DNA of 64,000 bases from a plasmid: the NCBI RefSeq assembly GCF_056746865.1, contig NZ_JBWKMP010000003.1; one strand, 5' to 3'. Shown in pieces: positions 100 through 10,632 of this stretch. The position numbers and the translations under genes are program-made. The notes beneath the pieces were generated by a model that saw only the letters and a list, made by a program, of their open reading frames with translations, did no database searches and was not told where the DNA came from. How positions within the stretch are numbered: position 1 is the stretch's first letter; every line of letters begins with the position of its first letter.

Positions 100-1460
100 C
101 GTTAATTAACTGGGAAGCGCATCGAGCTAAGTTCCTGGAGTTAAGAGAAGAAACCGGGATCACCATAAAAGAATATTGCGAGCAGCATGACCTCAGCTTT
201 AACACCGCCAGAAAGCATCTCAATATGAAAAAAAATGAGGTTAAGGCGAAAGCTAAGGCTACCGGGAAAAGTACAAAACAGCGCGCAAAAAGCAGCGCCA
301 CCGGCTCAAAAAAAGAGCAAAAAAAGGCTAATAAAAGCACAGAATTTACAAAAACTGACAAATCGTTGGCTGGTGGACGGTTCCGCGCCATGCCGCAAAA
401 ACAAAATGCGGATCACAAAGAAAAGCCAAGTAATAACAACAAGATACACAAGGATGTGAAGGGATCATTTTGTGATGAAATGGGAGAAATGATCCCTAAA
501 AGCAGCGATAAAGCCCAACGAAACAAGGGATCATTGCAAATGATCCCTGATTCATCAGCTCAAAGCACCACTTTGCCTGCCACCAACGTCGCCCGTGAGA
601 TGATGAAGAACGGCGCGACTGAACATTTACGACTTGCGATACAGATGGCGCAGGAACGAGCAATTCAGTATCAGGCTATCGTTGACCAGGAAGCGGAGCG
701 ACTACAGGAAGAGATTGACGCCCTCGGTGATACACAGCCAGAGGGGATGCACCCAGGGCAGCGTCTTCTCGGACTGATCAGCGATGCGGCCTACTACATG
801 AATGACTTTATCACCAGGCTGGCAGCCATCTATCAGAACGAGCAGAAGCTACGCCAGGGGGATGAAAAACTTGCGCAGGGCGCGCGTCAGCAGGCATTCA
901 GGGAGGCTGAGGCCAGAGAAAAACTGGCGATTGCCCGCCTACAAGCCGAGCAGCGTGGCAAGGAGATTGAGTATCGCATTGGCGCTGACGCACGCGCCGC
1001 CAGGGTTATCGCCGCCGCTATACGTATGCGTGAGCGCGAGGAGCTGGATGATATAGGTGTTGCTGAATATATCGAGCGGCAGGGCGTCAGTGTCCCGGCT
1101 ATCCTGGCGGCACGAGCGGCAAAAGCGATCTCACTTCTGGAGCCTCCGGTTTCTGACGTTAACGATGTTGATGATGAGCAACTGGATAAAGAGGCGAAGC
1201 AGTTTGCCGAGCAACAAGCTGGACTCCCACAATGGCTTGCACAACGCCGGGCTGAAGTAGCGAAAATCGTTGATAGGCTTGGGATGGGGGATTACGACCG
1301 GAACGGAGAACGTAAAGCCGGTGAATTTGAGGCCAATGATGAAGACCTGAATATAGACCCTTCCGCGACGGCTGATATCTACGGTGATTATGACGCGGGG
1401 GATACCGGTTTTGATGCTGTAGATGACGAGATTGCGATAGACCAGCCGGAGGATGACTAA
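96..1460 (+). CDS. pacA: terminase small subunit (PacA-like)
   Basis: ATG at 96 with GTGAGG Shine-Dalgarno; N-terminal HTH-like segment; stop overlaps the start of the large-subunit gene (TAATG); contains the GATC-rich repeat cluster. Confidence 0.6.
   Translation: MTLINWEAHRAKFLELREETGITIKEYCEQHDLSFNTARKHLNMKKNEVKAKAKATGKSTKQRAKSSATGSKKEQKKANKSTEFTKTDKSLAGGRFRAMPQKQNADHKEKPSNNNKIHKDVKGSFCDEMGEMIPKSSDKAQRNKGSLQMIPDSSAQSTTLPATNVAREMMKNGATEHLRLAIQMAQERAIQYQAIVDQEAERLQEEIDALGDTQPEGMHPGQRLLGLISDAAYYMNDFITRLAAIYQNEQKLRQGDEKLAQGARQQAFREAEAREKLAIARLQAEQRGKEIEYRIGADARAARVIAAAIRMREREELDDIGVAEYIERQGVSVPAILAARAAKAISLLEPPVSDVNDVDDEQLDKEAKQFAEQQAGLPQWLAQRRAEVAKIVDRLGMGDYDRNGERKAGEFEANDEDLNIDPSATADIYGDYDAGDTGFDAVDDEIAIDQPEDD
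461..547. other. candidate pac site: four GATC-containing 9-mers in inverted pairs
   Basis: GGGATCATT at 461-469 and 527-535; AATGATCCC at 488-496 and 539-547; each carries a Dam site; lies in the 5' part of the small-terminase gene, as P1 pac does. Confidence 0.4.
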
Positions 1461-2968
1461 TGGCTGGTGGTCGTAAGATTAAGTGCGTCACCAGTGATCC
1501 ACGTTGGCGCGATATGGTTATCAGGTATCGATACAACTTTACCCAGGCGGTTGTCGATATTTTTGGGATGTTCCCCTCCCACCAGCAGCAGCAGATCATT
1601 CAGTCAGTGCAGGAGACGGGGAGCAGGACGACCGTTACGTCCGGACACGGAACGGGTAAGTCGTCCCTTACCGCGATGTTGCTACTAATTTTTATGATCC
1701 TGTTCCCCGACGCCCGCGTCATTATTGTTGCGAACAAAATAGGCCAGGTAAAAACAGGCGTATTCAAATACGTGAAACAGTTTTGGGCGAATGCTGTTAA
1801 GCGCCACGGCTGGTTACAGACCTATTTTGTCCTGTCTGACACCATGTTTTATGAGCGTTCCCGTAAAGGGATATGGGAAGTGCTCTGTAAAGGTTATCGA
1901 CTCGGTAACGAAGAGGCACTGGCGGGGGAGCACGCGGAGCATTTACTGCTAATCCTTGATGAAGCATCGGGCATATCCGATAAGGCGATTAACGTCATGA
2001 CGGGGGCGTTAACGCAGAAAGATAACCGTATGCTCATGCTTTCCCAGCCTACGCGTCCAAGCGGTTACTTTTATGAATCTCACCATTCAAGGGCAAAGGC
2101 AGAAGGCAATCCGGAAGGTGTCTGGACGGCAATAGTCCTTAACTCTGAAGAATCACCATTCGTTGAACCGAGCTTTATTCGTGAGAAATTGCTGGAGTAC
2201 GGCGGCAGGGATTCGCTGGAGTACATGGTTAAGGTGCTGGGCCAGTTCCCGCGTGCAATTAACGGGTATTTGCTTGGTCGTGATGAGTGCGACCGCGCCG
2301 CACGGCGTAAAGTGTTGCTGGAGAAAGATTGGGGCTGGGTAGCGACCGCTGACGTCGGTAATGGTCGCGATAAATCGGTGCTCAATATATGCAAAGTATC
2401 CGGTTATCGTGAGAAACGACGCGTTGTGAACTTTAAGATACTGGAGATGCCAGGCACTATGGACCCGTTGGCTTTTGCCGACTTTATCTATAACGAATGC
2501 ACTCCTGATAAATACCCGAACATCACCATTGCTGTGGATGCTGATGGCTTTGGTTCAGATACGTGTGCGCAGCTTGTCCGCCGTGGTGCTAATCCCGTTC
2601 GCATCCGTTGGGGTAAGCCTATGTTTGCGCTAAGAGACAGAGAACGCTTTGTCAATCAGCGTGCTTACGCCAATATTATGGCAGGGGATGCCATTAAATC
2701 CGGGCGTATGCGTATCGATAGTGACCCCAAAACCGCAGATCAGGCATCAAAAATCCCGTATATGCTTAACGAAGAAGGGAAGGTAGCGATGATGCGCAAG
2801 GAGCACATGCGGCAGAAGTTAAACATCAAGTCACCGGACAGATGGGATACCTACTGCTTCACTATGCTGGTGGATTACGTGCCTGCTAATGAAGACATTG
2901 GCGCAGAACTCGCAACATTCCGCGATCAGGTGTTGGCAGAAGTGGATATTCCTGATATTGACATTTAA
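1460..2968 (+). CDS. pacB: terminase large subunit (PacB-like)
   Basis: Walker A (TSGHGTGKSS) and Walker B (LLILDEASGI) motifs; 502 aa; translationally coupled to pacA. Confidence 0.75.
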   Translation: MAGGRKIKCVTSDPRWRDMVIRYRYNFTQAVVDIFGMFPSHQQQQIIQSVQETGSRTTVTSGHGTGKSSLTAMLLLIFMILFPDARVIIVANKIGQVKTGVFKYVKQFWANAVKRHGWLQTYFVLSDTMFYERSRKGIWEVLCKGYRLGNEEALAGEHAEHLLLILDEASGISDKAINVMTGALTQKDNRMLMLSQPTRPSGYFYESHHSRAKAEGNPEGVWTAIVLNSEESPFVEPSFIREKLLEYGGRDSLEYMVKVLGQFPRAINGYLLGRDECDRAARRKVLLEKDWGWVATADVGNGRDKSVLNICKVSGYREKRRVVNFKILEMPGTMDPLAFADFIYNECTPDKYPNITIAVDADGFGSDTCAQLVRRGANPVRIRWGKPMFALRDRERFVNQRAYANIMAGDAIKSGRMRIDSDPKTADQASKIPYMLNEEGKVAMMRKEHMRQKLNIKSPDRWDTYCFTMLVDYVPANEDIGAELATFRDQVLAEVDIPDIDI

Positions 2969-3005: not shown

Positions 3006-4043
3006 TTACCAGAGTTTTGCCGCGTACATCGTTTGTGTGAATGTGTACCCATAGCGTTCTTCAACGCTTTTACCGTATTTTTTCCTGGCTTCAGTAAGGC
3101 GGATGCCTGTCAGGTCATCGCCGGAGGCAATCATAACTTCCAGTAGTTCCAGGTCCATTTTATCCAGCCTTGCCATTGCATCTTTAGCCTCTTGAATTTT
3201 CCGGCTAACGATCTGGTGTATGGCTGGATCGGCTTCGGCCAGCATTTTATCTGATTTGTTTTTTAAACTCTGATTGCGGATATCAATGTTTCTCAGGATA
3301 TATGACTTCACGACGTAGCTTGGCTGCTGCTTTTCCAGATCACGAACCCGATAAAGGTCAAATTCGCCGAGAAGTCCGCACGGAAGCGGTTTAATGCCAG
3401 TGTAAATGGTAAGGGTGCGGCGCTCACCAACGTTGTTAACAACGGGAATCTCTGTGTTTGCTTTTTTTGCAAAGATCAGCGCACCGTGCGTACCCACTCT
3501 GAAGCGTGAAAGTCCATTGTTGCCCTCAATATTGGTGGTAATCACCACATCGGTATAACCTTCTTTTCTTGCGCGGTATACCTCGCCCTCACGTTCAGCG
3601 GCGAAGAATCTGCGTTCTTCTTCAAGCGCACCGACAACCTGTGAAAATATCCTGTTTTTCATGCTTTTCTTTATAGTTTTATCGTATTTTTTCAGCAGGT
3701 CTTCGCGCGTAAATGTTCTCGTTGTGGTTGCGCTTTGCATAACGATGTGCGTACTCTGATTAGTATCCTCAACAATGAATGGGATCGGTAAATAAACCGA
3801 CTCAACAATGTTTGAGGCTTTGTCATCATCCTTGCGACACAGATCAACAAAGGCTTTCCATTCGGCTATGCATTTTTCAGCTTCTTCTAATACAGCCGGA
3901 TCATGTGTTAATGCAACATGGCGAAATTCCTCGCCAACATAACTGGTATCATGGAAAACAGAGTTTGCGACCACCAGCTCTTTCCACCTTTCAGCGGTTT
4001 GCAGGAACCGTTTGTACTCATTCTCGATCGACTTCTTACTCAT
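3006..4043 (-). CDS. hypothetical protein in the c1 immunity-repressor slot
   Basis: Start taken at the internal ATG (plus 4041-4043) with AGGAA Shine-Dalgarno; operator-like motifs lie just upstream; position between pacB and rox/dre matches P1 c1; no recognised domain. Confidence 0.5.
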   Translation of the reverse strand: MSKKSIENEYKRFLQTAERWKELVVANSVFHDTSYVGEEFRHVALTHDPAVLEEAEKCIAEWKAFVDLCRKDDDKASNIVESVYLPIPFIVEDTNQSTHIVMQSATTTRTFTREDLLKKYDKTIKKSMKNRIFSQVVGALEEERRFFAAEREGEVYRARKEGYTDVVITTNIEGNNGLSRFRVGTHGALIFAKKANTEIPVVNNVGERRTLTIYTGIKPLPCGLLGEFDLYRVRDLEKQQPSYVVKSYILRNIDIRNQSLKNKSDKMLAEADPAIHQIVSRKIQEAKDAMARLDKMDLELLEVMIASGDDLTGIRLTEARKKYGKSVEERYGYTFTQTMYAAKLW

Positions 4044-4060
4044 TATTCCTACTCGATTTA

Positions 4061-4157
4061 GTTTTCTAACATAAAAGTCCTGTGACAAATTTATGCTGAA
4101 TAACAAGGTGAGTAAAGGATAAAACCGCTTTTTTTTGATTGTTCCTATTAGAAAATG
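4061..4157. promoter_or_regulatory. two operator-like motifs upstream of the immunity-slot gene
   Basis: GTTTTCTAACA at 4061-4071 and ATTAGAAAATG at 4147-4157; same motif family as the palindromes at 24565 and 35913. Confidence 0.4.
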
Positions 4158-4239
4158 TAACCAGGAGCGGCTACCGCATGGCTGACGGATTTGCGAAGTG
4201 ATCTGGTCGGTGTTTTTTTGGGAAAAAAGTTCCGATTTC

Positions 4240-4271
4240 TAACTTTAAATAATTGGCATTATTTAAAGTTA
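4240..4271. other. rox recombination site (Dre target)
   Basis: TAACTTTAAATAAT-TGGC-ATTATTTAAAGTTA: perfect 14-bp inverted arms around a 4-bp asymmetric spacer; its reverse complement matches the rox site as I recall it; 152 bp upstream of dre. Confidence 0.85.
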
Positions 4272-4423
4272 GGCTATAATCTCCAGTAAACAGGCAGTAT
4301 TGACAAGGATGAAAAATCATGCCTCGAATCAAAGGCTTGAATTTTGAAAATTAACTTATAACTACCCTGTCAGTTTTCTATTTTTCACGTAGCGTTATCT
4401 GTATATAGAGGTTTAATAGTTTC

Positions 4424-5452
4424 ATGGGTGAACTAGTTATCTCCGGCGGTTCTGGTGGTTTTCTGCGCGATATTGGCACCGAATACCAGGAAGCTGCAAA
4501 AAACTTTATGCAGTTCATGAACGACCAGGGAGCTTATGCTCCAAATACGCTTCGAGATCTCCGTCTGGTGTTTCATTCCTGGGCGCGGTGGTGTAATTCG
4601 CGCCAGCGCCCCTGGTTCCCGATTACGCCGGAAATGGCCCGCGAGTATCTTCTCCAGTTGCATGAGGCCGATCTGGCCTCGACCACCATTGATAAGCACT
4701 ATGCCATGCTTAACATGCTGCTTTCGCAATGTGGCCTCCCGCCGCTGTCGGACGATAAAAGTGTGTCTCTGGCCATGCGGCGCATCCGGCGCGAAGCGGC
4801 AACGGAAAAAGGCGAGCGAACAGGCCAGGCTATACCGTTGCGGTGGGATGATCTGAAATTGCTCGACGTGTTGCTGTCCCGTTCCGAGCGGCTGGTGGAC
4901 CTGCGCAATCGGGCGTTTCTCTTCGTGGCATACAATACCCTGATGCGTATGTCAGAAATCTCGCGCATCCGCGTCGGAGATCTGGACCAAACAGGTGACA
5001 CTGTAACGCTGCATATTTCACACACGAAGACCATCACGACCGCCGCCGGACTTGATAAGGTGCTTTCTCGTTACACTACCGCCGTACTGAACGACTGGCT
5101 GGAGGTGTCCGGACTTCGAGAACATCCGGACGCGGTGCTATTCCCGCCAATACACCGCAGTAATAAGGCCAGAATCACGACAACGCCCCTTACTGCACCT
5201 GCAATGGAGAAAATATTCAGCGATGCCTGGGGGTTGCTGAACAAACGAGATGCCACGCCGAACAAAGGAAGATACCGGACGTGGACAGGCCATAGTGCGC
5301 GTGTTGGTGCGGCAATTGATATGGCTGAGAAACAGGTGTCAATGGTCGAGATCATGCAGGAAGGTACATGGAAAAAGCCCGAAACACTTATGCGATATTT
5401 GCGCCGTAGCGGGGCATCCGTTGGTGCAAATAGTCGCCTGATGGACTCATAA
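4424..5452 (+). CDS. dre: Cre-family tyrosine recombinase Dre
   Basis: 342 aa, colinear with Cre from the N-terminus; RHR and catalytic-Tyr region present (TGHSARVGAA..LMRYLR); paired with the rox site. Confidence 0.85.
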   Translation: MGELVISGGSGGFLRDIGTEYQEAAKNFMQFMNDQGAYAPNTLRDLRLVFHSWARWCNSRQRPWFPITPEMAREYLLQLHEADLASTTIDKHYAMLNMLLSQCGLPPLSDDKSVSLAMRRIRREAATEKGERTGQAIPLRWDDLKLLDVLLSRSERLVDLRNRAFLFVAYNTLMRMSEISRIRVGDLDQTGDTVTLHISHTKTITTAAGLDKVLSRYTTAVLNDWLEVSGLREHPDAVLFPPIHRSNKARITTTPLTAPAMEKIFSDAWGLLNKRDATPNKGRYRTWTGHSARVGAAIDMAEKQVSMVEIMQEGTWKKPETLMRYLRRSGASVGANSRLMDS

Positions 5453-5498
5453 ATTAATTTTCTAACAACCTTTTTAGACAGTGCATTTTAATGTAAAG

Positions 5499-5527
5499 TA
5501 CCCTCGCCTATTGCGGAGGGTACTTTG
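5499..5527 (+). terminator. intrinsic terminator after dre
   Basis: GTACCCTCGCC-tatt-GCGGAGGGTAC hairpin followed by TTTG. Confidence 0.5.
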
Positions 5528-5629
5528 CACAATCGTATTACGGAATCAAAACGCTTCACTGTTGACGGTTACACCATAACCTTCACTGCGGGCGTTAAGC
5601 GCGACCAGGCGGTCGTGGTGTTCGGTGTT

Positions 5630-5869
5630 ATGACCGGACTTGATGCCGTTCCCGTATTTACCCTCGAAAAAAACTGGCGAAATCTGGAGGAAGCTGAACG
5701 CTACGTCCGGAAAGTAACCGTCATTGCTGCTGAAAAACTCCTGGCCCACTATCAGGAAAATTATCGCGCTATGACCGAGAAAATTAACCATGTTTTCACT
5801 CGCCCCACCAGCGGCTTCATTGCCCCTGATGCGAATGCCGGGCGCTATCCGGCAAGGGGGCGCAAATGA
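5630..5869 (+). CDS. hypothetical protein (start uncertain)
   Basis: The ORF track's TTG start at 5525 overlaps the dre terminator, so the first in-frame ATG at 5630 is used; stop overlaps the next gene. Confidence 0.3.
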   Translation: MTGLDAVPVFTLEKNWRNLEEAERYVRKVTVIAAEKLLAHYQENYRAMTEKINHVFTRPTSGFIAPDANAGRYPARGRK

Positions 5870-6354
5870 AAACTTACTACCCATCCCTGAACTGTTATCC
5901 AACCACTAATCCTGAGCTGTCAGGGAAACTTCTGTCCCTCCTGGCTGATAGTCCTGATGAATGGCATAAGCCTGGTGATATCAACACACAGTTCCCTGAG
6001 TACGGGTGTATCCGCACCCGAAATGAGCTGAAGAACCTCATTGCTCACGGTTTTGTCCGTCACCGTAGCGGGAAAGGCTATCAGTTGGCTATCCCACAAG
6101 GAGAGGCAAGAGAACTCTTTGGCTATCGAGAAAGCCAGACGCAAGCGCGGGTGATCGCAGAAATTATCCGTAATGGCAGCGTCTATGCCCGCAAATTCTG
6201 GCTGTCTGGCGGTGGTGATGCATCACAGTTCTTGCGTGCTGTGCGATCGCTGGAGGAACAAGGTGTTATCGAGAATACCTGCGTCTCCGTTCCGACCGCT
6301 CCGCATATCAAACGCCGGATTTATACATTTACCCGGAGAGCTAAAAAGCAATGA
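5866..6354 (+). CDS. hypothetical protein
   Basis: ATG with AAGGGGG Shine-Dalgarno; stop overlaps the dut ATG (ATGA). Confidence 0.5.
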   Translation: MKTYYPSLNCYPTTNPELSGKLLSLLADSPDEWHKPGDINTQFPEYGCIRTRNELKNLIAHGFVRHRSGKGYQLAIPQGEARELFGYRESQTQARVIAEIIRNGSVYARKFWLSGGGDASQFLRAVRSLEEQGVIENTCVSVPTAPHIKRRIYTFTRRAKKQ

Positions 6355-6845
6355 TTAACGTGAAAGTGAAACGCCTTCATCCGGCGGCAAAACTCCCCGT
6401 TTACGCCACCGCCGGATCGGCGGCGATGGATTTTGTTGCTGTTGAAATAACGCCGGGTATCGATAGCAACGGCGCTATTTCCTCAAGCTGGTGGGTGCAT
6501 ACCGGCCTCGCTATGGCGATCCCTCCTGGCTGGTGTCTGAAACTTTATCCTCGTTCCGGATTGGGCTGCAAAAAGCATACGCGCCTGGCTAACTGCGTAG
6601 GAATTATCGACTCCGATTATCGCGGTGAAATCAAAGCAAAACTGATTACAGATCCCGGTGGTGAAGGCGTTTGCCTCAAGCCAGGAATGGCGGTCATGCA
6701 AGGCATTTTTGAGCGTGTTGAACCGGTATCGCTGGTAGAAGTTGATGAACTCGATGAAACAGAGCGAGGTGCTGGTGGCTTTGGTAGCACATCGGAAGAC
6801 CGCATTGAAATCAAGCGTACACCGCTTCAGTACGCAAAGTTTTAA
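6351..6845 (+). CDS. dut: dUTP diphosphatase
   Basis: Trimeric dUTPase motifs: AGSAAMDF, YPRSGLG, GIIDSDYRGE, RGAGGFGSTS. Confidence 0.85.
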   Translation: MINVKVKRLHPAAKLPVYATAGSAAMDFVAVEITPGIDSNGAISSSWWVHTGLAMAIPPGWCLKLYPRSGLGCKKHTRLANCVGIIDSDYRGEIKAKLITDPGGEGVCLKPGMAVMQGIFERVEPVSLVEVDELDETERGAGGFGSTSEDRIEIKRTPLQYAKF

Positions 6846-6859
6846 GTAGAGGAAAGGCT

Positions 6860-7510
6860 ATGAATAACATGCCAACGAAAGAGCTTTTTAAGTTCCTTCC
6901 CAAATACAAAGCTCACAAAAACGTTAGTGCATCGAAAATTAAAAATGTTGTTATTTTCGGAGTAACTGATGCCCCACTTTGGGGCTGCATCGAACTCGTT
7001 GAACCAAAAGGGGCAACAGTTTGTGTTGACGCAATGTTTTTACAAAAACACCGACCAAAAACTGGCGGGTATCTGATCGTTTATGAAAACGGTTATCTGT
7101 TCTATGCCCCGGAGAAACCATTTGAGGAATGCTATGGCCTGGTTAACGACGCCTCCAAAAATGGAACCACGGTCATCATTACGGATGACAACGGCGTGAT
7201 GATTAATCTTACTGGGAGCGTAACTATTTCTGCTGGTGGCATCACCACCCAGCAAGAAGAAATCGACCTTGAAGCAGCCGACTTCTCTGATGCGCTAATG
7301 TGGTTGAAGGAAGGCAAGAAAGTTGCCCGACGCGAGTGGAAAGGCGAAAAGCAATTCTGCTGGTTAGTTCTCGCTGGAAGCGTCAATTTACACGGCATTC
7401 ACGTTCCTTATGGTGACCATTTTGTATTGAAAGATGCACAAAATATGGACAGCGTTTGGTTGCCGTCTGTGGATGATTTACTGGCCTGTGACTGGTTTGT
7501 TGTGGAGTGA
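6860..7510 (+). CDS. fusion protein: unknown N-terminal domain plus C-terminal DUF2829 (Tad2-like) domain
   Basis: C-terminal ~75 aa (FSDALMWLKEGKKVARREWKG...WLPSVDDLLACDWFVVE) matches the DUF2829 pattern as recalled; GAGGAAAGG Shine-Dalgarno. Confidence 0.55.
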   Translation: MNNMPTKELFKFLPKYKAHKNVSASKIKNVVIFGVTDAPLWGCIELVEPKGATVCVDAMFLQKHRPKTGGYLIVYENGYLFYAPEKPFEECYGLVNDASKNGTTVIITDDNGVMINLTGSVTISAGGITTQQEEIDLEAADFSDALMWLKEGKKVARREWKGEKQFCWLVLAGSVNLHGIHVPYGDHFVLKDAQNMDSVWLPSVDDLLACDWFVVE

Positions 7511-7516
7511 TTTAAC

Positions 7517-8323
7517 GTGGAAAATACCAAGAACATTCAATATCGCTTGCGTAACGGCCTGCTGGTGGATGTAAACGATGATATGTCCCTGCCCTTTGCC
7601 ACCATTGAGCGAACCATCCTTACATACCTGGGCTTAGACGAAGAGTTAGATAGTGAGAATGGCATTGCTATCTGGCGTGACGGAAAAACGGGAGTCAGAC
7701 GTTTTATTACGGCAAGAGGCATTCAGTGCACACAGGAAGAATTGTTTGAACTGGCGCAGTCTTATGGATGCATCGCGTTAGATCCCCTGTATGACCCAGC
7801 CATAGCACAACAACTCATTCGAGAGCTGTCGCTTTCGGTCACGCCAATAATCTTCCGCCAGGGAACCTTAACCGGCACATGGCGTGTAGAACGCATCTCT
7901 AAATATCAGCCATATAATATCCATTTGAACGGCACTATTACTGGTGTGGATCAACCAGTAGCAGGTGAAAACAAAGACCTGGAACTTGCAGTAATGATGG
8001 CAGCTTGTCGCGTGCTTGGCCTGGGCAAGCAGATGTTTATCCATTTCCCAAACGGCGCGGAAGGCGAAGTAGAGCTGATTTCCTGCGACTTTTCCTTAAC
8101 CTGGATGCTTGATGAATTCCTGGACAAAACAGTATTCCGTGCTGAAGAACTGGATATGTATGTCACCTCAAGTATTCCTAATGACGTGAAAGTTGAGGCC
8201 ATCGCTACAGCCAGGGCGAAATGCCGTGCGGCGATTGCAGAACAGGCCAAAGAAGAACAGTCCGATGAAGTCGCGGCAGATGTGGAGGCAGAGGTAGCGG
8301 AGGATGCTGATGCTGACGCCTAA
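7517..8323 (+). CDS. hypothetical protein with acidic C-terminal tail
   Basis: GTG start with GGAG Shine-Dalgarno; 268 aa; ends in an Asp/Glu/Ala-rich tail. Confidence 0.45.
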   Translation: MENTKNIQYRLRNGLLVDVNDDMSLPFATIERTILTYLGLDEELDSENGIAIWRDGKTGVRRFITARGIQCTQEELFELAQSYGCIALDPLYDPAIAQQLIRELSLSVTPIIFRQGTLTGTWRVERISKYQPYNIHLNGTITGVDQPVAGENKDLELAVMMAACRVLGLGKQMFIHFPNGAEGEVELISCDFSLTWMLDEFLDKTVFRAEELDMYVTSSIPNDVKVEAIATARAKCRAAIAEQAKEEQSDEVAADVEAEVAEDADADA

Positions 8324-9410
8324 AAACATCACCGAATTACCAGAGTGGAGAGAGCTGGTAAGCAAATATAGCCATGACTGGGCATTAGCAGCAGAAGAGT
8401 TGATGGGTGTTAAGTTAACCCACCAGCAAAAGCTAATTGTTGAGGCGATTCAACAAAAAGGTTCAGCAGTCAGCGTCACCACTCCTGAAGGGATAGGCCA
8501 AAAGACGGTTATCGCTATAATTAGTATTCTTTATACAATCCTGATGCCTGAGTCTAAAACGGTTATTGTTTCCCCAAAGTTCTATAATTGTCGCAGGCAA
8601 GTTATCCAATACATAAGTACGTATTGGGATAGAGTCAGTAACAGAATCCCATTGCTGGGAGAATATTTTAAAGTCGACGGAAACGGCATCAATCATCGTT
8701 ACCGGGAATATTGGGGCTGCGAAATTAAGCCATATCACCGAAATTATGAGGAAGGTTTCGGTGGATATTATGCTGAACATCTTTTAATCATTGTTACGGA
8801 GGCGGCTCTTGCTGGCGATCGGCTATTCAGCATGTTAAGAGCATCGTTAGTAAGTGACGATTCACGTATACTTTTAATGTCCGCTCCTTCAGAGGAGGAG
8901 CATGGACACTTTTACGATTCCCATCATGGTCGTGCAAAATCAGAAGAAAATCCATGTGGTATTTATACAGCCATCAAGCTGAACGCAGAAGATACCCCCA
9001 TTATTTCACAAGGTTATCTTGATAACATTGCAGAAATATATGGTGGTAAAAACAGCGATTACTACCGTCGCATGATTCTTGGTGAGTTTCCAGGTATTAG
9101 GGAGGCTGTTCTTGAATCAGATATGCCGAAAACAATGCGCTTTTCGATGCCTGATGGTAGTGAATGGATAATGCCATTACGAGTGATAGCCCGGCATCAT
9201 GCACAGCACCACGCCAAAAAACATGGCGTTACAACATTGGAGTGGTTGAAATCGCACACCATTCCACTCTTCACTGCAGATCACAATGCTATCGTTGAGT
9301 GGGCAAAAACAATTCCGTGGGAGAATGTCGCTGAATACGCCCACATGCTAAAACCGCCGAAAGACAGGCAAGAAATTAGCTGGCTGACAGCAGAAAAAAT
9401 CATTGAGTGA
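8304..9410 (+). CDS. terminase-large-subunit ATPase-domain paralog with degenerate Walker motifs
   Basis: Clear similarity to the 1460-2968 ATPase domain (THQQKLIVEAIQ.. vs SHQQQQIIQSVQ..; FYDSHHGRAKSEENP vs FYESHHSRAKAEGNP), but Walker A reads TTPEGIGQKT and Walker B IVTEAA; no nuclease-domain counterpart. Confidence 0.6.
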   Translation: MLMLTPKNITELPEWRELVSKYSHDWALAAEELMGVKLTHQQKLIVEAIQQKGSAVSVTTPEGIGQKTVIAIISILYTILMPESKTVIVSPKFYNCRRQVIQYISTYWDRVSNRIPLLGEYFKVDGNGINHRYREYWGCEIKPYHRNYEEGFGGYYAEHLLIIVTEAALAGDRLFSMLRASLVSDDSRILLMSAPSEEEHGHFYDSHHGRAKSEENPCGIYTAIKLNAEDTPIISQGYLDNIAEIYGGKNSDYYRRMILGEFPGIREAVLESDMPKTMRFSMPDGSEWIMPLRVIARHHAQHHAKKHGVTTLEWLKSHTIPLFTADHNAIVEWAKTIPWENVAEYAHMLKPPKDRQEISWLTAEKIIE

Positions 9411-9416
9411 TAGTAG

Positions 9417-9447
9417 GAAGCCCGCCTGGTTGAGCGGGCTTCTTTTC
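9417..9447 (+). terminator. intrinsic terminator after the rightward dut operon
   Basis: GAAGCCCGC-ctggttga-GCGGGCTTC hairpin followed by TTTTC. Confidence 0.5.
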
Positions 9448-9826
9448 AAATATTGGAACCATATAGTTCACGTAGTTTATCCGCTACTGAAGATACGGGG
9501 ATTTCACCAGTTGCAGCCCCCACCGCAAGTTCCACCAGCACGGGAGAATCATATACCTGTATACCGTTACGGCGTAGAAATAGCAGCGCACTGTTTAGCG
9601 CGGTACGCTTATTGGCATCATTGAATATATGCCCTCTCGCTGTAGCCACCAGGTAGGTGGCGGAGACTTCGAAAAGGTCGGTGATCTCTTCGTAGGCAAC
9701 TCTGGCCTGAACTCTCCCGATAATGGCCTCTGCCCTGCCCGGATCTGACATGCCAGGCAGGCCGCCGTAGCGGCTTATATTCGCATCATGAAGCGCAATA
9801 AGTTCTTCCGGTGATATATGCCTCAT
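9446..9826 (-). CDS. doc: Doc toxin (Fic/Doc family kinase)
   Basis: 126 aa; Fic motif HIFNDANKR; close match to P1 Doc as recalled; overlaps the phd stop. Confidence 0.9.
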
Positions 9827-10047
9827 TATCGGTTAACCAGTTCCTTGTTGGTGGAGTCCAGGGTGTCAAACAGGGATGCAAATTCAGCATCCAGCGCCGC
9901 TTTTTTGTAGGCTTCGAAAGTAGCCTTGCTGACAATTACTGCTGGCTCACGGCCTCTGCGGGTGATTTCAACCTCTTCCCCGGCTTCAACATTGTTGAGC
10001 ACTTCAGAAAGGTTGCCACGCGCGGTACGGAAGTTAATGGATTGCAT
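9826..10047 (-). CDS. phd: Phd antitoxin
   Basis: [32 protein letters not shown]...; start taken at the second ATG of the track ORF. Confidence 0.85.
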
Positions 10048-10119
10048 AAACACCTCGTGTACTCGTTATGTGTACACAATTATAAACTTCACAGGCATAA
10101 AGCACCAGCACTTTGCAGC

Positions 10120-10509
10120 TTAAATAACCGGACAATCATCAAATTCCCCACTTCGGGCATCATTGATGACATGAGTGATCACACCAAAAACAGCATTACT
10201 GCCCGTGTATCCATCGTCATCTACTGGTAACGCCTCTTTCTTCCCGGTGCTTAAGTCCTCCAGGTGCTGGCGCGGATACTTCCTGTATCTCTTTATGCGA
10301 TATTCACCCTCCATAGCGCACACAAGCAGAGAACCATCAACCGGAGTAAGCGAGGAATCAACCACCAGCAAAGCACCCTGCAATATTCCCTCACGGTGAT
10401 GGCTATCAGCTGCCCGCATGAAGTAGGTCGCTGAAGGATGTCTAATTATCTGCTGATCAAGAGAAATTCGGCTTTCAACATAATCCGCCGCAGGAGAAGG
10501 GAAGCCCAT
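10120..10509 (-). CDS. humD: UmuD'-like SOS mutagenesis protein HumD
   Basis: 129 aa; S24-peptidase/UmuD-like core (..RAADSH...LLVVDSS..RIKRY..); same neighbourhood as humD in P1. Confidence 0.75.
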   Translation of the reverse strand: MGFPSPAADYVESRISLDQQIIRHPSATYFMRAADSHHREGILQGALLVVDSSLTPVDGSLLVCAMEGEYRIKRYRKYPRQHLEDLSTGKKEALPVDDDGYTGSNAVFGVITHVINDARSGEFDDCPVI

Positions 10510-10632
10510 AGCGTTTTACCTCAATGATACTGTTTATTCATACAGTATACATTGAAAAGGCATAGTTTGTGAAAGCGGGGTTTGTAGGCGCGCCACGCTG
10601 GGGGCTAATCACATTTCTCCCCCATCTTGCCG

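Follow-up and report, generated by a model that had tools for sequence, protein, structure and literature searches.

The plus-strand open reading frame at positions 8304 to 9410 of the window, by which we mean the whole 64,000-nucleotide stretch of plasmid DNA analysed, almost certainly encodes a predicted non-catalytic protein of two domains, in which a copy of the ATPase domain of the large terminase PacB is followed by a domain of ~100 aa, and is an optional gene of an accessory cassette. The plasmid is a prophage of the P1/D6-like kind. P1 is the classic transducing phage, and phage-plasmids of this kind are often found in E. coli and Salmonella from clinical and animal sources.

Results

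Position and expression signals of the paralog gene

Read from the ATG at 8304, the frame gives 368 aa. A second ATG at 8310 is the start in RefSeq relatives (366 aa), with a GGAGG at 8299-8303 placed 6 nt before it, and this is probably the true start. The real large terminase gene, pacB (1460-2968, plus strand; 502 aa, with intact GTGKSS and LILDEA motifs), served as the comparison reference. The paralog is 5.3 kb downstream of it in a separate operon, confirming that it is encoded away from the real terminase.

The gene is the last in a tightly packed string at 4424-9410, within which gene overlaps are present, and a sigma-70-like sequence at 4253-4280 on the plus strand (TTGGCA-16-TATAAT, recognised only by its 11/12 consensus match), upstream of a dre/cre-like recombinase gene, is a candidate promoter for the whole string. 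A terminator-like GC-rich hairpin with a T-run at 9417-9446, separating the paralog stop from the convergent doc gene, is probably the end of the operon. The P1 C1-operator consensus had no site within the 64-kb window at up to 3 mismatches, and the D6-type repressor probably has a specificity differing from that of P1 C1. A tRNA scan of the same window found none.

The N-terminal domain is a PacB ATPase copy without its catalytic residues

Residues 3-263 (8310-9092, plus strand) form a TerL ATPase-fold domain by both BLASTP and Foldseek. As the original prediction had claimed, the protein aligned with the ATPase domain of PacB well beyond chance expectation: BLASTP (E 1e-51) covered 258 residues with 2 gaps, 33% identical and 59% positive, and the alignment ended at about residue 263. 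PacB proteins of the same phage group were its nearest relatives (33-37% identity in the ATPase domain), and conservation was best, at 57-71%, in the first 60 residues and in the block at 201-235 (GHFYDSHH...NP.G..TAI.LN.ED.P). The profile search and structure prediction suggested as checks gave the same answer: phrog_2, 'terminase large subunit', matched at E 1.6e-10, and the predicted model (mean pLDDT 80; >90 for residues 11-140) had the large-terminase ATPase fold, with Foldseek matches to the TerL ATPase domains of P74-26, T4 gp17, D6E and Sf6 (E 6e-9 to 1e-7). A Pfam search gave no match for the paralog or for IsaA, the product of the adjacent upstream gene; an NCBIfam search gave nothing significant, and PDB sequence searches with the paralog, IsaA and C-domain profiles gave nothing below E 0.1. 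Judged by sequence, the N-terminal domain is a diverged copy from the P1-family PacB ATPase lineage. It resembles PacB of P1, P7 and D6 in its N-terminal segment, Q-rich adenine-motif region, S-x-P coupling motif, GxFYxSHH...NPxG block and TerL ATPase fold.

The paralog differs from PacB in lacking the Walker A Lys and the Walker B Asp. In the gap-free part of the PacB alignment the degenerate Walker A motif GIGQKT (8490-8507, plus strand), G63-I-G-Q66-K-T, stands opposite PacB G64-T-G-K67-S-S, with Q66 where PacB has K67, and the degenerate Walker B motif IIVTEA (8787-8804, plus strand), I162-I-V-T165-E166-A, stands opposite L164-I-L-D167-E168-A, with T165 where PacB has D167. Across the 11 alleles examined (four allele classes), the position of the Walker A Lys was taken by Q, H, R, E or T, that of the Walker B Asp by T, M, V, I or L, hydrophobic or Thr in all, and that of the catalytic Glu by E, D or N, with E166 kept in the present allele only. 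A Lys followed by Thr or Ser was found one position past the canonical Walker A Lys in the present allele and in that shared by L012 and L013; the other alleles, with GIGRPQ, GIGETS, GVGTTT or GTGTTT, had no Lys at either position. The predicted loss of both catalytic residues was thus seen here and in all 11 alleles, and neither of the outcomes named in advance as refuting it, the lack of a significant alignment or intact Walker motifs, was found.

The paralog is retained under purifying selection around a hypervariable segment

Residues 96-130 (8589-8693, plus strand), a helical hairpin after strand beta2 in the predicted model, were the lowest-identity segment in every pair of paralogs (14-37%), with 37% identity even in an allele pair that was 96-98% identical over the first 60 residues and the C-terminal domain. 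In P1 PacB versus D6-type PacB the same segment was 51% identical (mean 59.5%), and by these comparisons the hypervariability is specific to the paralogs and not shared by PacB. The paralog dN/dS was 0.25-0.5 for the whole gene, falling to 0.05-0.2 at its conserved ends. It rose to 0.6-0.7 over residues 61-130, still <1, and relaxed selection on a dead active site together with recombination could account for this. No allele, even at 37% identity, had a truncated frame or an internal stop. With ~164 intact copies in PLSDB and a dN/dS of this order the gene is not a pseudogene, and its description as a retained paralog was upheld.

The C-terminal domain belongs to a family of small phage proteins

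The nuclease domain was originally described as having no equivalent in this protein; it is indeed absent, but residues 264-368 (9093-9407, plus strand) are a separate, widespread phage domain of ~100 aa, so that the RNase H-like nuclease domain of PacB is replaced by an unrelated one. Most members of its family are small stand-alone phage proteins of ~100 aa. phrog_17928 matched residues 268-354 at E 6.9e-13, and a domain profile built from the paralogs retrieved 889 representatives. The ~95-aa core, MPDGS..W..P...IA..RA..YA...T.PLF....I..WA.NNM.W.DV, is matched by the paralog in profile comparison, and the family hallmark, 'MPDGS...DWAxNNMNW', is seen for example at the C-terminus of Xanthomonas phage CP2 ORF36. 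The domain is alpha/beta and matches neither a Pfam family nor a fold in the PDB, and its AFDB50 matches were members of its own family; in Pfam, the stand-alone C-domain proteins gave DUF1351 only, in two fused members. A reading of this region as a degenerate nuclease remnant was rejected: MAFFT aligned it to PacB only by way of long gaps, it belongs to a stand-alone family and it has no RNase H-like fold match.

While members of the phrog_17928 family are mostly stand-alone or DUF1351-type coiled-coil fusions, the paralog is a dead-ATPase fusion, an arrangement found only in P1-like elements of Enterobacterales; a permuted architecture of the two-domain fusion was also found. In CP2 a DUF1351-type protein bears the domain as a fusion, and the genes immediately following it are annotated as an Erf-like annealing protein, exonuclease, endonuclease and SSB. 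In the P1-like phage JK004 a stand-alone domain is encoded two genes past a DnaB-sized gene, with a small ORF between, and on contig L003 the ATPase-C-domain fusion is placed after DnaB. RecA-dependent nuclease genes are close by in L003 and L006.

The paralog is the optional last gene of a recurrent cassette

The recurrent three-gene cassette has the order DUF2829-isaA-paralog, its first gene encoding a DUF2829/Tad2-like protein (216 aa; 6860-7510, plus strand) and its second an isaA homolog (268 aa; 7517-8323, plus strand) whose product is 46.6% identical to P1 IsaA and falls in phrog_2326; the paralog is an optional last member. The 3' end of isaA extends 14-20 nt into the paralog, and the two genes overlapped in all three cassette types. 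Two loci hold the cassette, the dre/cre operon of D6-type phage-plasmids, where the paralog has phd/doc as neighbours and the Dre recombinase and dut genes upstream, and the position after ssb in P1-type elements, where it neighbours the antirestriction genes hxr-ddrB-ddrA-darA. The neighbourhood is of a conflict type, with the Tad2-like DUF2829 gene two genes upstream at both loci and isaA between.

The N-terminal domain was intact in ~164 PLSDB plasmids and the C-terminal domain was found in 166. The paralog was found only in PacB-encoding elements, about one-fifth of PacB-bearing plasmids having it and ~79% lacking it, and it is labelled in databases as 'hypothetical', 'terminase large subunit' or 'DNA packaging protein'. 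It is absent from the P1, P7 and D6 genomes; canonical P1 keeps isaA and has IS1 and isaB in the paralog's place. The original statement that P1 has no described counterpart is therefore right for the laboratory P1 genome but not for the ~120 P1-type plasmids that carry an ortholog between ssb and hxr. In pEA36_1 the paralog is interrupted by IS911, and in a Klebsiella relative it is cut by a Tn3-type transposase gene. The isaA-IS1-isaB segment is a known variable region among P1-like plasmids (PMC9603915), and isaA was non-essential in P1 by CRISPRi (PMC10695390).

Paralog alleles were shuffled independently of the plasmid backbone. L013 combines an IsaA of the window type (99%) with a paralog N-domain that is 75% identical, and L012 has a 74% IsaA yet the same paralog allele as L013; with these pairings, strict co-variation of isaA and paralog alleles, as for interacting partners, did not hold. 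An origin of IsaA as a paralog of the small terminase PacA was dropped, as BLASTP gave no similarity; the acidic C-terminal tail of IsaA resembles the PacA tail and is missing in several homologs. Neither P1 isaA nor isaB is related to the paralog, P1 isaA being the ortholog of the upstream gene. Word-indexed protein searches, which gave 8 clusters even with a profile, are little guide to the spread of the family. PADLOC had no family for the paralog, IsaA or the DUF2829 protein at E<=0.1, and a literature search for a PacB paralog, or an inactive or second terminase, in P1-like elements found nothing.

Discussion

The reading that we favour, if tentatively, is that the paralog is a non-enzymatic terminase look-alike which acts by binding in phage-host or phage-phage conflict. 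Its probable mode of action is binding because it is predicted to have neither ATP hydrolysis nor DNA cutting and is unneeded for packaging. That it is dispensable for packaging follows from its absence from P1, P7 and D6, and this makes regulation of the phage's own motor less likely and an accessory role, or one in conflict, more so.

Residual catalysis through a non-canonical P-loop, GxGxK[TS], could be imagined from K67 of the paralog and from a catalytic position that is still acidic (E166 in the present allele, Asp in that of L012/L013), but with alleles that have no Lys at either position, some of them with Asn for the catalytic Glu, and with the Walker B Asp replaced by a hydrophobic residue or Thr throughout, an active ATPase is barely credible. 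It is also very improbable that the gene is a functionless, decaying remnant of a duplicated pacB. The catalytic motifs have gone, the distribution is sporadic and disruption has recurred (by IS1, IS911 and the Tn3-type transposase gene), as decay would have it; the stop-free, full-length frames with dN/dS well under 1, the conserved two-domain fusion (permuted architecture included) and the translational overlap with isaA retained in three cassette types speak against it, and selection and conservation data largely refute this explanation.

A paralog that modulates packaging by its own phage, having kept the N-terminal part and the lid block of PacB and binding PacA, PacB or pac DNA, would be a dominant-negative or anti-terminase. 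It would delay or limit the assembly of the motor or the cleavage of pac, for instance in lysogenic cells or soon after induction. Its closeness to PacB of the same phage group, its restriction to PacB-encoding elements and its best-conserved blocks (the first 60 residues and 201-235) are consistent with this, as is the placing of its genes: the P1-type copy is behind ssb, which the P1 annotation puts under the C1-controlled operator Ossb, so that early expression is expected, and the D6-type copy is in a recombinase operon behind the sigma-70-like promoter. We nevertheless consider such a modulator rather unlikely, since packaging and transduction occur in P1, P7 and D6 in its absence, most PacB-bearing plasmids lack it, the nuclease domain is absent, block 201-235 may be the mere structural core of the fold and alleles are shuffled irrespective of backbone. 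Alternatively, the C-terminal domain may be the functional core, directed at DNA ends or at a factor of replication or recombination, with the dead ATPase domain as a DNA- or protein-binding scaffold. The fusion upstream of Erf-like, exonuclease, endonuclease and SSB genes in CP2, the DnaB-side positions in JK004 and L003, the P1-type copies after ssb and the D6-type copies after the Dre recombinase and dut, and the RecA-dependent nuclease genes nearby in L003 and L006 all argue for such an accessory, which as a whole we regard as improbable.

Under the favoured reading, a binding role in conflict, the paralog would occupy a partner normally engaged by the real large terminase. One candidate is a sensor by which the host detects the TerL ATPase domain (Avs1-3, Upx), and another is PacA or the terminase assembly made by a rival P1-like phage. 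Through its C-terminal domain the paralog would make a second contact, and pressure from the partner would fall on hairpin 96-130 and on the destroyed nucleotide site. Guilt by association for a conflict role is weak, the loci being general cargo hot spots, a decoy for oligomerising sensors might trigger them instead of blocking, and the presence of the C-terminal domain in replication and recombination modules points elsewhere. The more specific proposal, in which a Walker-dead PacB shell plus adaptor is a terminase mimic from an anti-defence cassette, aimed at sensors or rival terminases, is doubtful. Such a mimic would either blunt sensing by Avs1-3 or Upx or act as a poison for the terminases of competing P1-like phages, and the lost ATP site and hypervariable hairpin would be an arms-race footprint.

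Compared by description only, the paralog recalls the packaging-interference and redirection proteins SaPI Ppi and PICI Rpp, which are small, satellite-encoded proteins without terminase homology that alter packaging by binding the helper small terminase non-enzymatically. The original prediction proposed a mechanism of this kind, as regulator, decoy or interference factor; unlike Ppi and Rpp, the paralog is encoded on the phage-plasmid itself and not on a satellite. Its closest precedents are T4 vs.8 and Ksap1/2, lineage-restricted TerL-ATPase-like proteins for which an anti-defence role was suggested by the authors (bioRxiv 10.64898/2026.04.30.721860). Again by description only, these share an accessory TerL-ATPase-like fold without nuclease, present besides the real terminase. 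vs.8, a TerL ATPase-domain paralog of T4-like phages, reportedly retains conserved Walker A and B motifs (bioRxiv 10.64898/2026.04.30.721860), whereas the P1-like paralog has lost both and has an extra C-terminal domain. On the host side, Avs2 and Avs3 contact the TerL ATPase site and bound ATP, and Upx recognises the TerL ATPase core (bioRxiv 10.64898/2026.04.30.721860). From PacB itself the paralog further differs in not being beside pacA and in being dispensable and sporadic.

Decades of P1 genetics missed the paralog because laboratory P1 has the IS1-associated replacement, and about one-fifth of P1/D6-like phage-plasmids carry a conserved pseudo-terminase under uninformative or terminase labels. 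An unannotated phage domain of ~100 aa with hundreds of representatives is also now defined. If the role of the paralog is only minor housekeeping, the practical outcome is an annotation fix. As an ATPase-dead, hypervariable terminase look-alike, the paralog is well suited to testing whether phages employ terminase mimics as decoys or for interference, and if the mimic reading is true it would give the first assigned function to a TerL-like accessory protein of the T4 vs.8 and Ksap1/2 class.

Gene order around the paralog

In the source element, an E. coli plasmid prophage of D6/P1-like type, pacA (96-1460) is followed by pacB (1460-2968), encoding the large terminase PacB, and then by a minus-strand c1-like repressor gene (longest ORF 3006-4106, 366 aa from TTG). 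A tightly packed plus-strand gene string opens after c1 with a dre/cre-like recombinase gene (4424-5452), runs through two small ORFs, dut, a DUF2829/Tad2-like gene (6860-7510) and a 268-aa isaA ortholog (7517-8323), and ends directly thereafter with the terminase-like ORF (8304-9410), before a hairpin and T-run (9417-9446) that face the convergent doc-phd-humD genes. Plasmid NZ_CP104667.1 and close relatives are 99.5% identical to the target region, and among phage records D6 covers the larger part of the operon around it (84.6% identity over 74% of window 4200-10600). The c1-like repressor of RefSeq relatives has 345 aa (Pfam Phage_P7_repressor_C1) compared with the 366-aa longest ORF here; as the P1-type C1 operator ATTGCTCTAATAAATTT was absent from the whole 64-kb window at up to 3 mismatches, this repressor probably differs from P1 C1 in operator specificity. 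The DUF2829/Tad2-like protein (216 aa) has an additional N-terminal part (phrog_11049) before its DUF2829 part, and D6 and some relatives have only a 146-aa version. ARAGORN found no tRNA genes in 1-64000 of the window.

A terminase ATPase fold with lost catalytic residues

The original prediction, of a terminase-ATPase paralog lacking the catalytic lysine and aspartate, was borne out by a BLASTP comparison of the 368-aa product with PacB (258 residues, 33% identity, two gaps, E 1e-51), which placed Q66 opposite the Walker A lysine K67 and T165 opposite the Walker B aspartate D167, with catalytic glutamate E168 matched by E166. An AlphaFold model (mean pLDDT 80; residues 11-140 above 90) agreed with this, its best Foldseek matches in the PDB being the large-terminase ATPase domains of P74-26, T4 gp17, D6E and Sf6 (E 6e-9 to 1e-7). 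The block closest to PacB, residues 201-235 (57-71%), may represent structural core. The ORF is the paralog as proposed, except that its start is probably not at 8304: translation likely begins at the second ATG (8310), which is used by RefSeq and lies 6 nt downstream of GGAGG.

Eleven alleles gathered from plasmids, phage records and metagenomic contigs formed about four classes by N-domain identity (100%, ~76%, ~53% and ~45%), plus an outlier at 38%. The Walker A lysine position was Q, H, R, E or T, the Walker B aspartate position T, M, V, I or L, and the catalytic glutamate position E, D or N; a Klebsiella relative reads GSGTGTTT in its Walker A region. In these alignments, loss of the catalytic residues is a trait of the whole family rather than of the window allele alone. 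That allele (GIGQKT) has a lysine one residue downstream of the canonical site, but a shifted P-loop is unlikely because most alleles have no such lysine.

The C-terminal domain

The C-terminal ~100 aa (window 9093-9407) belong to a large unannotated family of 889 representatives (members including P0020-P0168; consensus MPDGSxWxVPxxxIAxxRAxYYA...TxPLF...EIxDWAxNNMNWxDV...GWxNG), for which neither a Pfam model nor a matching PDB fold was found. Its members are mainly stand-alone proteins of (pro)phage early regions in Proteobacteria and Firmicutes, such as the one encoded two genes past a DnaB-sized gene in the P1-like Cronobacter phage JK004. The domain also forms the C-terminus of Xanthomonas phage CP2 ORF36 (511 aa, DUF1351-type), directly downstream of which lie genes annotated as Erf-like annealing protein, exonuclease, endonuclease and SSB. 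In a Klebsiella michiganensis contig the order is permuted, with the domain N-terminal to a dead terminase ATPase, and another contig (L003) carries a 38% identical fusion immediately 3' of dnaB without an adjoining isaA.

An optional cassette gene under selection

The isaA ortholog is 46.6% identical to P1 IsaA (97% for the P1-type IsaA of MH422554), and the isaA stop overlaps the paralog start in 3/3 cassette types. The order is ssb - DUF2829 (absent in some) - isaA - paralog - hxr in P1-type plasmids and dut - DUF2829 - isaA - paralog - doc in D6-type plasmids, the DUF2829/Tad2-like gene accompanying the pair to the second locus, after ssb. Canonical P1 (NC_005856.1 21569-24132) is colinear with MH422554.1 from ssb through isaA, and colinearity resumes at hxr; in between lie IS1 and isaB, in exactly the interval that the paralog takes up in wild P1-type plasmids, so that by this comparison laboratory P1 is a loss variant at this locus. 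The absence of a P1 counterpart therefore holds for canonical P1 and fails for wild P1-type plasmids. The 'IS1-associated' isaA of P1 is itself the first member of the isaA-paralog pair, still intact; it is non-essential in P1 (PMC10695390), and isaA-IS1-isaB is a region known to vary among P1-like plasmids (PMC9603915). In D6 (NC_050154.1, 3041-4432) no paralog follows isaA (orf113); a short pdcA-like gene lies there on the other strand, so paralog and pdcA are alternative occupants of the isaA-doc interval. In pEA36_1 (NZ_CP117591.1, 4216-5555) IS911 cuts the 3' end of the paralog, removing the last ~35 codons, and in K. michiganensis (L006 8738-10384) a Tn3-type transposase gene truncates the domain-first relative, two independent mobile-element events. 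Among 776 PacB-bearing plasmids, isaA is present in 459 and the paralog in ~164. Being an optional add-on absent from reference phages, the gene is not required for packaging.

Where present, it is under selection rather than decaying, in keeping with its predicted retention: all collected ORFs are full-length, 164 PLSDB plasmids carry the N-domain and 166 the C-domain, and dN/dS between pairs of alleles is 0.25-0.5 for the gene as a whole, 0.05-0.2 at its conserved ends and up to 0.6-0.7 in residues 61-130. Residues 96-130 are the lowest-conservation segment in every comparison between paralogs (14-37%); the matching PacB segment is unexceptional between P1 and D6-type proteins (51%, mean 59.5%). 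The alleles are recombinant, one (L013) matching the window's at 98% in residues 3-60, 96% in the C-domain and only 37% in residues 96-130. IsaA and paralog alleles show no strict co-variation.

Proposed function

What is firm is that the protein is non-catalytic and kept by selection, that the phage cycle can do without it, and that its gene sits in accessory hot spots. A Tad2-like gene lies two genes upstream, separated from it by isaA, and its neighbours are dar antirestriction genes in P1-type plasmids and phd/doc in D6-type ones. Avs2 and Avs3 contact the TerL ATPase site and bound ATP, Upx recognises the TerL ATPase core, and the lineage-restricted terminase-ATPase-like proteins T4 vs.8 and Ksap1/2 have been suggested to have a possible anti-defence role (2026 preprint, bioRxiv 10.64898/2026.04.30.721860); vs.8 keeps its Walker motifs, unlike the present family. 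On both grounds we tentatively favour a putative terminase mimic that would work by binding only, in conflicts between phage and host or between phages.

Next, and rather unlikely, is a modulator of the pacase that the phage itself encodes, and a replication or recombination accessory acting through the C-terminal domain is a little less likely again. That the gene is a remnant without function is improbable given the full-length ORFs and dN/dS of 0.25-0.5. An active ATPase of non-canonical type could draw on the displaced lysine of GIGQKT, but the lack of this residue in most alleles makes it the least credible reading.

We found no description of the protein in the searchable literature. In databases it is hypothetical, 'terminase large subunit' or 'DNA packaging protein', the latter labels standing on the dead paralog in MH422554.1 (16006-17100, 'terminase large subunit'), MH445380.1 and UniProt A0AAW7V7R1; they are misleading, since these genomes encode their genuine terminase at another place, in pacB. 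Accessory paralogs resembling TerL, like pseudo-enzymes, are already known in kind; what is new is a Walker-dead terminase ATPase joined to this C-terminal domain, with a hypervariable segment specific to the paralogs. The observation of a dead paralog is solid and timely, and the protein itself is an accessory one with a putative role.
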